Shown here in pieces: positions 33,497 through 36,711 of a DNA stretch of 64,000 bases. Made by a program: the position numbers and the translations under genes. Each line of letters opens with the position of its first letter. The stretch's first letter is position 1. This DNA is from Verrucomicrobiota bacterium (lineage in GTDB: Bacteria; Verrucomicrobiota; Verrucomicrobiia; Limisphaerales; SIBH01). The stretch covers positions 1,529 to 65,528 of the forward strand of contig JBBRBM010000004.1 of the NCBI GenBank assembly GCA_038205745.1. The letters are read 5' to 3'. The notes under the pieces were generated by a model. It searched no databases. It was not told where the DNA came from and was given only the letters and a program-made list of their open reading frames with translations.

Positions 33497-34414
33497 CTAA
33501 GGCACAAGTATCTCGCGGCGAAGACGACCGACGAACGTGGATGGCAACCGTCGGTCCATTGATCCAACGACCGGGCGCTCGCGTTCCACATGGCCATCTA
33601 CGAAAGCAACGTTCGCACGCTGACGATGACGAAAGTGCGCGTTCGGATAACTCCACGGTGAGTCGTCGTAGTCAACGTAGTAGAATTCCTCCAGCATCGG
33701 ATTGTCCGGAGACGCGGGCGACTGAAAGTCATTGACCTGCGCCGCGTCAGCGAACAGGCACACCGAGGATGTGTCGCGAAGTTTTTGAATTGTGAATGGC
33801 GGCTGTCCGTTGGTGGACGAGATGTGGCGGTTGTAACCGTAGCCATACGCCGCGCCACGCGCCTTCAATTTGAACCGGGCATCGCCGTAGTTGAGTGACG
33901 GACAAATTTCCACGCCACGCCCGAGCAGATACGGATAGAGCACGCCATAAGTTGCATCGAAGGCACGCTCGCCTTCGTTGCCGTTCTTCAGCCAGCCGAA
34001 CCAGAAGACGACGCCATTGTTCGTGGGGAAATCGCTGAAGGCGAAGGTGCGTCCCTCGTTGTCGTCGAAATACATCTGCGCGGCGAGACCGAGCTGGCGG
34101 AGATTGTTCACGCACTTGATGCGTTGCGCGGTTTGTTTGCTTCCGCTCAACGCCGGGAGCAAGAGCGCGGCGAGAATTGCAATGATCGCCACGACCACGA
34201 GCAACTCGATCAACGTGAACGCTTCCTTCCGCGTTTCGCCTTCCTGTGCGGCGATCACGCGGCACAAACATTCCGGGCACAGGCAGTCATGGCTGGAATC
34301 AACTTCGCGCAATCGCGGGAACTCCAAACACCAACAGCGCGTCGGTGCGGTGTCGGCGTGACCCGAGAAGTGTGTCTGGCACTTCGGACAAACTTTTGCC
34401 TCGGGCGTGCTCAC
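33497..34414 (-). CDS. DUF1559-type pseudopilin-like protein (prepilin-type N-terminal methylation motif, H-X9-DG) with an N-terminal Cys-rich CWC-type extension
   Basis: [24 protein letters not shown], and [13 protein letters not shown] (H-X9-DG). N-terminal CPKCQ..CWC..CLCPECL. The GTG start at 34414 overlaps the upstream stop as GTGA. An internal GTG at 34258 would give a classic short leader [20 protein letters not shown]. Confidence 0.8.
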
Positions 34415-35508
34415 GGTTTCAGTGCGTTGACGCGATAGAAGGCGCGGGTTGCCGGTGTGTTCGTGTCTTGCAACAGCAACACTCCGCCACTTCCCGTGTT
34501 GGTCGCAGACGCCGCGCTCCAAGTGGCGAGATCACTTGTGCGTTCGAGAACGTAACTCCAGTTCGTGCGACTGATGAACTGCGCGCGCCATGTGCCATTC
34601 GAGCGTGTGCCACTGTAGTTTTGCACCGGGGGATCGGGCACCTTCACCACCAGATTGTCCACCGTTCCATGCGCGAGCACCGAGCCCCAAAACTGCGGGT
34701 TCCCGAACTGCGCCGCGTCGCAGTAACTCATGATCGCGAGCGAATCGCAGCGAAAATCCGCCGTCGCACTGAGCACGAGATCCTTGATCACGCCGAAGAC
34801 TGCGCCGTTCTTCGTGATGAGCGTCTTCAACGTGCGGTTCGTGGCGGTGAACATCATTTCGATGTGAAACAAATCATTCGTGGTCATCACGAGCGGGTGA
34901 TTGTCGCTGAAGTAGATCAGGTGATTCGTGGCGACCACCGTCGGCGCGAAGGTGGCGCCGAAGCCGGAGTCGGGGAAGTAATCGAACTCCACGAGATTGC
35001 GCGGCCCTGTCGCCGTTTGTCCCGCGCCGCGGAAGAAGTTCGTACCAATGGCATTCGAGAAGTTCATGAACCCGATCGCAATCTCGAACGTGTATGACTT
35101 GTTGCTGGTGGTGCCGATCGCGATGTCACGCAGCGTCAGATCGAAGGCGACGCCGAAATCATCGCTTCTGGAGATGATCGTGCGGAGCGGCAGCCAGAAG
35201 TAACTGTTCGTACGCGAAGAGTCCCAGGTCACTTCCATGTTCTGGTCCGTGGCGTTCCAGCGGAACAACGACGCGTCGCCGGACGAACGCCAGCCGCGCG
35301 CGGATGGATCGGTGGAAAAACTCTCACCGATCGTCACGGCGCGCAGCGCCGACATCAGCATCGCGAACACGAGCACGACGAATACGCCGCGGGCTTGGTG
35401 AAGGCGCGAACGACAGGCCGGAACGCGGACGGTCACGTCCGCCAGTTTTAGAGCGGATGTTCGCGCGGACGTGATCGTCCGCGCTCCGCGCTCCGGATGT
35501 TGGTTCAT
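34411..35508 (-). CDS. secreted hypothetical protein with a C-terminal ..W..FYRV module
   Basis: Start taken at MNQHPERG. Hydrophobic core [16 protein letters not shown]. No known domain. The 5' end contains repeat R-D, so the start is uncertain. Confidence 0.5.
35420..35487. repeat. palindromic repeat family R-D copy 1
   Basis: GGAACGCGGACGGTCACGTCCGC ... GCGGACGTGATCGTCCGCGCTCC. Confidence 0.8.
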
Positions 35509-35542
35509 GATGAGCGGCATCGGATATTGCGCGCACCACCGG

Positions 35543-36313
35543 TCAGTCCTTCCGCCGCGGCGCACGGCGGGCCACGGCGGAGAAAGCATCGATCTCGGCT
35601 TTGCCTTCGATCACTTCCACGCGCACGTAGCGAACCCACGGAAGACGCACACGACGTCCATGTTCCGTTTGCGCGTGGCGAATGTTGAACCCAGTGCCGC
35701 CAGCCGAACCTTTGTAGAGCGTGCGGATGTCTTCAAGCGTCGCGCCGGCGAAGTCCTCTTGCGTCAGCGAGGGATCGACGGGGATATCGAAGCGGCCTTC
35801 GCTGTCAGGAGGAAACAGTGCGTCAAGGAGCGGCGTGGGTTCGGGATCGAGCGCATAAAACTTTCTTCCATTCGCGCTCACGGAAACCCGTGTCACACCG
35901 GTGTTGTTGGCGAACAGCGAACTGTCTGTCGCAGGTGTGCCGATGTAAGTGAACGTGTTCAGATCGAACTCATTCGTCACAATGAACCCGGCGTTGCCGA
36001 AGATGATGAAGTCGAGACCGAACGGCTTGTGCGGCACGTCGAAGATTGGCTTGTGAAACTTGATCGTGATCGAGCCACCCGCGCCGATCGAAGCGATTTG
36101 ATTTGTGCCGTATGGCGGATCAAACGGATCAATCGCCTCGCCGAACGGCGCGACGCGCGAAGGTTCGCCGAGAACAGACTGCCCATTGGTAAATCCGGCG
36201 GCGAAGCCTTCGCCGGGATTGTAGCTGATGACCGAAACGGCGTAATTCGTGGCCGCGACGGTGTTGAGGACGATGCTGGAACAAGCCAGCAGAACGAGAC
36301 TGAGTTTCTTCAT
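35543..36313 (-). CDS. secreted hypothetical protein, first gene after the cobalamin riboswitch
   Basis: Start moved to MKKLSLVLLACSSIVLNTVAA (signal peptide). The ORF-track start is a TTG further upstream. No known domain. Confidence 0.6.
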   Translation of the reverse strand: MKKLSLVLLACSSIVLNTVAATNYAVSVISYNPGEGFAAGFTNGQSVLGEPSRVAPFGEAIDPFDPPYGTNQIASIGAGGSITIKFHKPIFDVPHKPFGLDFIIFGNAGFIVTNEFDLNTFTYIGTPATDSSLFANNTGVTRVSVSANGRKFYALDPEPTPLLDALFPPDSEGRFDIPVDPSLTQEDFAGATLEDIRTLYKGSAGGTGFNIRHAQTEHGRRVRLPWVRYVRVEVIEGKAEIDAFSAVARRAPRRKD

Positions 36314-36391
36314 GCACTGATCTTTCTCTGGCGCGCGAACGAATCGTTCGTGCGCGGGTTTCAAGTTGAGAGGACCAGTGCGGTGGGGCTG

Positions 36392-36429
36392 AAAACAAAA
36401 CAGCCTTCACTCGCAAAGAGAATGAAGGC
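36392..36429 (-). terminator. intrinsic terminator of the riboswitch expression platform
   Basis: On the minus strand: GCCTTCA, a 13-nt loop, TGAAGGC, then TGTTTTGTTTT. An upstream segment AAAGAGAAGGATGAGGC can pair with GCCTTCATTCTCTTT as an alternative helix. Confidence 0.65.
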
Positions 36430-36711
36430 ATTCGACTTCCGTTCCGCACTCGCGGAACGGACTGGCCTCATCCTTCTCTTTGACGGAGAAGTGGTTCGAC
36501 GAGCGAACCGGACGAGCGAAGCCAAACCGGTATCCTGACTGCGGGCTTTGCCTCACTCCCACCTTCCCGATTTCTCAGTGGCGTTCGCGCGAAAGATTTT
36601 CGCGGCGGAGTTCGTATCCCGACACAGTGGCGTAACCGTCCCGGATTCTCACCGGGTTCCCAGACATTTGACTGCGTGACATCCCGCACTCGCGGGACTC
36701 TTTCAAAGAGC
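36430..36711 (-). promoter_or_regulatory. cobalamin (B12) riboswitch
   Basis: The minus strand reads GGGAACCCGGUGAGAAUCCGGGACGGUUACGCCACUGU ... GCCACUGAGAAAUCGGGAAGG ... AAGCCCGCAGUCAGGAUACCGG. This matches the conserved core and B12 box of the cobalamin riboswitch family as I remember the consensus. No covariance model was run. Confidence 0.85.

Follow-up and report, generated by a model that had tools for sequence, protein, structure and literature searches.

A cysteine-rich CWC domain joined in frame to a prepilin-like DUF1559 protein in a cobalamin-riboswitch operon of Verrucomicrobiota

The window analyzed here, a stretch of 64,000 nucleotides from contig JBBRBM010000004.1 of a Verrucomicrobiota genome of the order Limisphaerales (assembly GCA_038205745.1), contains a gene in which a small cysteine-rich domain of the CWC type (Cys_rich_CWC, PF14375) is fused in frame to the leader of a prepilin-like protein of the DUF1559 family, as the last gene of an operon headed by a cobalamin riboswitch. 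We have little doubt that this CWC-pilin fusion is real and translated. As to the fate of its product, we lean toward a reading in which a single precursor inserts into the membrane with its N terminus inside and is cut by prepilin peptidase after Ala65, which would separate the CWC part, as a free protein, from the mature pseudopilin; the cleavage step is one that we infer.

The fusion gene (33497..34414, minus strand), delineated by reading of the open reading frame (ORF), hidden Markov model (HMM) matches and homologue alignment, comprises 305 codons and a stop. It starts at GTG 34414-34412, within the sequence ccGTGAgc, where GTGA overlaps the TGA stop of the preceding gene (ORF2), and ends at TAG 33499-33497. 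An earlier sequence-only reading of this DNA had proposed that no stop codon separates the CWC-type domain from the prepilin-like protein, and this is borne out both by the open frame and by matches to PF14375, N_methyl and DUF1559. The 305-amino-acid (aa) product consists, in one uninterrupted frame, of the CWC domain (residues 9-51; 34262..34390, minus strand), a hydrophilic basic linker with Ala at position -1 (residues 52-65; 34220..34261, minus strand) that holds a non-conserved internal GTG at 34256-34258, the class III signal-peptide core F66 T L I E70 L L with its hydrophobic helix (34154..34219, minus strand) and a periplasmic globular DUF1559/H-X9-DG part of about 220 aa (33500..34153, minus strand). 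Pfam places N_methyl (PF07963) at residues 62-86 (27.8 bits, cut-off 21.2) and DUF1559/SBP_bac_10 (PF07596) at residues 94-117 (26.6 bits, cut-off 23.3), and NCBIfam places the prepilin domain TIGR02532 at residues 65-86 (26.4 bits, cut-off 16.3) and the H-X9-DG motif TIGR04294 at residues 260-277 (21.5 bits, cut-off 19). The class III signature is complete, with Ala at -1, Phe at +1 and Glu at +5 followed by a hydrophobic stretch of about 20 residues. The leader is 65 aa long and contains the cysteine-rich domain, rather than being of the short hydrophilic type; its last 14 aa alone look like a normal leader. The CWC domain, for its part, is not a stand-alone protein of 60-80 aa, since its frame continues into a pilin-like protein of 240 aa. 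In the public database, the protein of this gene (P0002, 276 aa) begins at TTG codon 30 (34325-34327), inside the CWC domain. This start is a calling error, by which the homologues P0004 and P0100 are likewise shortened, and automatic start calling conceals the CWC-pilin fusion in databases.

The sequence-only reading had also ascribed to the domain the canonical spacing of small CWC proteins, which holds in part. The CWC and CxCxxC motifs are present, and PF14375 matches residues 9-50, at 25.2 bits (E 2.2e-5, cut-off 24) when residues 1-65 are scanned alone; the whole protein scores 21.9 bits, below the cut-off, and the genome-wide scan of the window's genome, which found no CWC domain besides that of the fusion, gave 23.2 bits. 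The cysteines are C9, C12, C27-W28-C29, C44, C46 and C49 plus an extra C51, while the third conserved Cys, present in 20 of 21 relatives (≥90%), is replaced by Gly18. Of the eight canonical cysteines, the domain therefore has seven, and a further one, Cys51, is displaced to a position two residues past Cys49. A profile built from the fusion CWC domains (A3) retrieves 198 small proteins, nearly all PF14375; these were reached with an alignment query, a word-indexed search with the 65-aa leader alone having returned zero candidates. A single-sequence phmmer search with residues 1-53 against 1.84 billion representatives gave 44 matches, mostly of 56-144 aa, of which the top two were spurious Cys-repeat proteins, and yielded no architecture information. 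The AlphaFold2 (AF2) model of the whole protein has a mean predicted local distance difference test (pLDDT) score of 73.8 and a helix over residues 68-118, and the AF2 models place a beta-hairpin at the first CxxC of the CWC domain. Eight Cys in 50 residues together with this predicted hairpin would fit a Zn or Fe-S site. Foldseek found no match in the PDB at E≤0.001 for either the whole-protein or the CWC-alone model, and we rejected as evidence the weaker matches, which were to zinc domains of the PHD and eL34 types. Among PDB sequences, a profile search with the CWC domain gave nothing below E 0.04.

The fusion recurs. The genome sets searched are samples and not a census, several loci are limited by contig ends and related genomes are non-independent observations. 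A complete in-frame CWC domain precedes the motif [GA]-FTL[IV]E, cut after the G or A, in 25 of the 120 best homologues (53-100% identity), and all 25 orthologous fusions match both PF14375 (E≤0.01, best 8.6e-12) and N_methyl; P0002, P0004 and P0100 are three further fusions whose starts were mis-called. CWC-pilin fusions are thus found in at least 25 metagenomic homologues and, within the window's order, in the genomes of at least 9 other species, across several families. DUF1559 is a large family; in Planctomycetota and Verrucomicrobiota, a single genome can encode dozens or even hundreds of its members. When the phylum was searched with a profile extending into the pilin helix, ordinary pilins dominated the matches; the CWC-only profile A3 was used instead. 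It matched 6 of 401 species genomes drawn evenly from across the phylum versus 60 of 401 genomes of the window's order, and the CWC domain is present in 2 of the 12 genomes of the window's own genus.

A tree of the mature pilin parts contains a clade of 62 proteins without CWC and another clade that is mostly fused, and presence or absence of the domain requires at least seven changes on it, a figure somewhat inflated by mis-called starts. The leader of P0006 (76% identity), MTAPDLNSCPRCGARARIG before the FTL, has kept nothing of the CWC domain beyond its first CxxCG and resembles what an in-frame deletion would leave behind, which would point to recent domain loss. Four proteins (P0087, P0098, P0106 and P0119) are fusions with a different, more canonical 9-Cys CWC variant (CPLCG..N.C..C...PCWC..EIP...C[IL]C..C), which suggests domain replacement or an independent fusion event. 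The annotated leaders of P0014, P0016, P0021, P0036, P0052 and P0084 have peptides in common, such as ..TCPRHLAGS.. and ..PARCRGH.., which look like translated upstream repeat elements taken in by over-long start calls.

Both fusions and adjacent pairs are found in other genomes, the survey that the sequence-only reading had called for. Besides the CWC-pilin fusion itself (window, L071 and L073-L082), the same CWC subtype occurs as a stand-alone protein of 73-132 aa, typically in an operon that runs from riboswitch to TonB-dependent receptor (Plug and barrel), DUF71 (Diphthami_syn_2) and CWC; at the C terminus of DUF71 proteins that carry the motif E-[QR]-G-E-[FY]-H (L055, which is the same as L093, L084 and L094-L096); and at the C terminus of signal-less BtuF-like Peripla_BP_2 proteins of 370-400 aa, with a separate pilin gene directly after (L083, L090 and L091). 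In L087-L089, Peripla_BP_2, CWC, N_methyl and DUF1559 form a triple fusion in an open frame of 568-680 aa, and in L080 a separate BtuF-like gene stands directly upstream of a CWC-pilin fusion. Pfam confirms the Peripla_BP_2-CWC, DUF71-CWC and Peripla_BP_2-CWC-N_methyl-DUF1559 architectures, and each composition found as a fusion "leader" (CWC alone or BtuF-like plus CWC) also occurs as an independent protein in sister genomes. A stop between CWC and pilin does exist in some relatives (L090 and, by ORF layout, L083 and L091), where the CWC domain belongs to a separate upstream gene, while the in-frame fusion recurs elsewhere. In L090, the TGA of the CWC gene overlaps the GTG of the pilin gene, whose product has its own 5-aa leader (MKRHA, followed by FTLMELL). 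From the sequence of this overlap, a one-base change would interconvert adjacent pair and fusion.

These architectures very probably share a link to vitamin B12. A cobalamin riboswitch aptamer heads the window's operon (36508..36686, minus strand; Rfam RF00174, 58.1 bits, gathering score 31.5, full model 1-189), in agreement with the sequence-only reading, which had called the link to corrinoids itself pure inference. That link is now backed by the recurrence of the riboswitch and by fusions of CWC to DUF71-B12 and BtuF-like proteins. Counting cobalamin riboswitches upstream on the same strand, among loci with enough upstream sequence, we found one at 10 of 10 testable CWC-pilin fusions, 1/1 triple fusions, 4/4 BtuF-like-CWC loci, 5/5 DUF71-CWC loci, 7 of 12 stand-alone CWC loci and the truncated locus L086 (1/1), or 28 of 33 testable loci for all CWC architectures together. 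The short-leader loci that lack the CWC domain (L110-L112) have the same operon of riboswitch, ORF1, ORF2 and pilin in 3/3 cases, so the pilin subfamily appears to be B12-regulated with or without CWC. In the window's order, the CWC subtype is very probably a B12-associated module of the cytoplasm, as judged from gene context. Two earlier studies bear on this. A gene for a "cysteine-rich CWC protein" lies between cbiA and sirC in the norcobamide cluster of Sulfurospirillum and is co-induced with the cluster (PMC7755780), and a DUF71 subgroup with the signature ENGE[FY]H has been linked to B12 salvage (PMC3541065); the motif in the DUF71 copies of the window's order is close to this published signature. 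In a Deltaproteobacteria metagenome-assembled genome (L114:5001-5904), a stand-alone CWC gene for which no riboswitch was detected overlaps a downstream DUF71 gene, and the pairing of CWC with DUF71 therefore reaches beyond Verrucomicrobiota.

How might such a precursor work? Prepilins insert with the leader in the cytoplasm, and the leader closes in Gly or Ala and is cut off at the cytoplasmic membrane face (PMC10191384). On the reading we favor, an upstream CWC-bearing gene, of the kind that in sister genomes shares bases of its stop codon with the start codon of the pilin, would have become joined to the pilin gene. The precursor would insert N-in/C-out, leaving the CWC domain of about 50 aa in the cytoplasm and the DUF1559 domain in the periplasm, and the prepilin peptidase of the genome, which encodes a Peptidase_A24 gene (G000:C24:30271-30891), would cut after Ala65 at the cytoplasmic membrane face, the predicted site lying between 34220 and 34219 (Ala65/Phe66). 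Each cut would yield one mature pseudopilin and one CWC protein of 65 aa, the counterpart of the stand-alone ones, so that the two would arise 1:1 where corrinoids are taken up. Candidate chemistries for the CWC protein, with a Zn or Fe-S site, include corrinoid hand-over, ligand removal and reduction.

Several features of the fusions favor cleavage. Position -1 is G or A in 16/16 fusion loci scanned for start codons and in 24 listed fusion proteins, residues -2 to -5 are mostly basic and F66, T67, L68 and E70, which include Phe+1 and Glu+5, are invariant in 25 aligned fusions. Since the full cleavage signature is kept, cleavage probably still occurs. This is further supported by the fact that in sister genomes CWC and pilin are two distinct polypeptides with coupled translation and that every "leader" composition exists elsewhere as a free protein. 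Of the two alternatives that the sequence-only reading had left standing, removal of the CWC domain by prepilin peptidase would be a better reading than initiation at an internal GTG. A broader proposal, that prepilin peptidase here acts as a polyprotein processor, the removed leader (CWC, or a BtuF-like-CWC protein of about 370 aa) being a functional cytoplasmic protein released at the membrane 1:1 with the pseudopilin of an undescribed B12-acquisition system, is one that we advance tentatively.

A number of observations weigh against this picture. In our literature search we found no prepilin whose leader contains a folded domain, and one of 50 aa, or in the triple fusions of about 330 aa, might get in the way of the peptidase. 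Close orthologues of the pilin, including those of 10 of the 12 genomes of the genus, do not have the domain; as far as gene content tells, the pilin works without CWC, which is dispensable for it. AF2 models the CWC part poorly (pLDDT 50-70 in the whole model and 64 for CWC alone with 110 sequences), and Gly18 could mean that the domain is decaying in the window's genome. Lastly, four stand-alone CWC loci outside the phylum have no riboswitch and just one of the four adjoins DUF71, so that a universal CWC-B12 link is unsupported.

The strongest alternative is that the protein is never cleaved, but remains a bitopic membrane protein in which a cytoplasmic CWC domain is permanently coupled to a periplasmic DUF1559 domain and which never enters a pilus-like fiber; it might, for example, relay a signal to the other side of the membrane, or carry a corrinoid there, together with an unknown permease. 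The size of the N-terminal parts, 65 aa in the window and about 330-430 aa in L087-L089, speaks for it, since these lie far beyond the leaders described for type IV pilins (PMC10191384). However, the fusions all keep G or A at -1, F at +1 and E at +5, as the short-leader orthologues do, which would be unexpected if processing had been abandoned, and the existence of CWC and pilin as separate polypeptides in sister genomes implies that physical linkage is not required. We therefore regard an uncleaved protein as rather unlikely, though it deserves to be taken seriously.

It is also conceivable that, in the window's genome, an ancestral fusion has left a CWC domain that no longer functions and is decaying toward the deletion seen in relatives. 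Gly18 in place of a conserved Cys, the borderline Pfam score, the remnant-like leader of P0006 and the seven or more gains or losses on the pilin tree would all fit, as would the partners: we found no DUF71 or BtuF-like partner in the window's genome. The codons of the domain tell otherwise. Against the same-genus orthologue, the proportion of nonsynonymous differences (pN) is 0.18 and that of synonymous differences (pS) is 0.78; the two domains are 68% identical in amino acids, and the remaining seven Cys are all kept. Six pairs were compared for selection, and ratios of nonsynonymous to synonymous substitution rates (dN/dS), taken only where dS was computable, were 0.16-0.29 for the CWC codons and 0.09-0.26 for the pilin part, the linker being less constrained (0.26-0.63). 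By these codon comparisons the CWC part is under purifying selection. In addition, the frame contains no stop or frameshift, and the new Cys51 could stand in for the lost ligand. Decay is accordingly improbable.

The sequence-only reading had raised the possibility that one messenger RNA yields two products, with the pilin starting at an internal GTG. The window does have this GTG (34258-34256, Val53), which would give a leader of 13 aa, and an in-frame TTG (34267) that would give one of 16 aa; a leader of 13 aa would be nothing unusual, many short-leader orthologues having one. In relatives, the linkers are 11-43 aa long and always close in G or A, and ATG starts, where present, lie 4-8 codons ahead of the first Cys, in several loci overlapping the upstream stop or lying within a few bases of it. 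No ATG, GTG or TTG occurs between the last Cys and Phe+1 in 9 of the 16 fusion loci; elsewhere such codons are at non-homologous positions, and the window's GTG is not conserved among fusion loci. In those nine loci, the pilin must therefore be made as a fusion, and the internal GTG fails as a general mechanism. Production of the pilin from the internal GTG or TTG, with full-length CWC product minor or separate, is thus highly improbable, the more so as a simple Shine-Dalgarno motif scan found no match ahead of either codon and as the frame has no stop after CWC, without which translation alone could not yield a stand-alone CWC protein.

The remainder of the window's operon, all on the minus strand, is compact. 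Directly after the aptamer, a consensus scan identified a terminator-like hairpin with a 10-bp stem followed by the U-tract TGTTTTGTTT (36403..36429), which is probably the expression platform of the riboswitch. ORF1 (35543..36364, with a likely start, MKKLSLV, at 36313) and ORF2 (34411..35589, ending in ..FYRVNALKP, its stop overlapping the CWC-pilin start) encode secreted proteins of unannotated families, neither with a Pfam or NCBIfam match. Homologues of ORF1 occupy the equivalent position in L074, L075 and L110-L112, and homologues of ORF2 lie directly upstream of the pilin gene in nearly all loci, with 36-60% identity from about residue 60-80 onward. In three genomes (L077, 3752-5437, minus strand; L081; L082), ORF1 and ORF2 are joined as a single secreted protein of 548-566 aa, which supports a functional link between the two families. 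Homologues lack any counterpart to the initial 60-80 residues of ORF2 in its maximal frame (window 35400-35589), alignments beginning at query residues 57-82, and translation probably starts at a more downstream codon, close to the hydrophobic signal peptide. We also considered that the CWC domain might be the C terminus of ORF2 and rejected this idea; ORF2 closes with its own conserved ..FYRV tail, and its stop overlaps the GTG. The genes overlap or abut in the order riboswitch, ORF1, ORF2 and CWC-pilin, and a sequence scan of the window found no promoter-like site within the operon, which is predicted to be a single transcription unit. In two of the non-fusion loci (L110:5872-7092 and L112:5433-6653), the pilin gene is followed on the same strand by a gene for a 406-aa protein with faint cytochrome c matches.

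To our knowledge, CWC (PF14375) and DUF1559 are both large families without known function, and our literature search found no paper on the function of CWC, nor any that treats DUF1559 together with cobalamin. The component families (PF14375, class III signal peptides, DUF1559 and RF00174) were already known, and some database records are already named "cysteine-rich CWC family protein". What is new is the in-frame leader fusion, the series of intermediates (adjacent pair, fusion and triple fusion), the rejection of an internal start and the tally of riboswitches by architecture. One CWC subtype and one DUF1559 subfamily are placed in B12 acquisition or handling by gene linkages of four independent kinds: control by a riboswitch, and fusion with DUF71, with BtuF-like proteins and with the pilin. 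If the peptidase does cut, removal of the leader would yield a second functional protein, making this a new kind of prepilin leader, and if the polyprotein reading is true, it would add a new role for class III signal-peptide cleavage and provide the first assigned role for CWC and for a DUF1559 protein.

How does this operon compare with known systems? Riboswitch-controlled accessory proteins that capture B12 are familiar from Bacteroides, where BtuG and BtuH are of this type. By gene context the Verrucomicrobial operon is similar, with secreted or surface proteins from families that otherwise lack annotation encoded behind a cobalamin riboswitch, but it is centered on a pseudopilin-like protein. 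The nearest relatives of the domain itself are the stand-alone CWC proteins of PF14375, such as SMUL_1567 of the Sulfurospirillum multivorans norcobamide cluster (PMC7755780), which have the same CxxC..C..CWC..CxCxxC pattern in about 50 aa and likewise stand in a B12 gene context. Whereas these are free proteins of 60-90 aa, the window's CWC domain forms the N terminus of a prepilin-like precursor and has Gly at the third Cys position. The DUF71-B12 PP-loop ATPases (PMC3541065) and BtuF-type Peripla_BP_2 proteins, which are fused to or adjoin the same CWC subtype behind cobalamin riboswitches, are partners of CWC and not its homologues. With type IV pilins and pseudopilins, including the long-leader T4b pilins and those of Streptococcus sanguinis (PMC10191384), the fusion shares a leader that is hydrophilic and basic and has Gly or Ala as its last residue, then Phe+1, Glu+5 and some 20 aa of hydrophobic alpha-1N helix, and lastly a globular domain at the C terminus. 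That review describes leaders as hydrophilic and variable in length, with no mention of a folded domain, whereas the fusion leaders hold a conserved 8-Cys domain under selection and, in relatives, also Peripla_BP_2. A functional parallel is the Sulfolobus "bindosome" of sugar-binding proteins (PMC3047682), in which a pilin-type signal likewise places a component of nutrient uptake, rather than a motility or adhesion pilus, at the cell envelope; that system is archaeal, has short leaders and serves sugar uptake by ABC transporters, while for DUF1559 substrate binding is putative.

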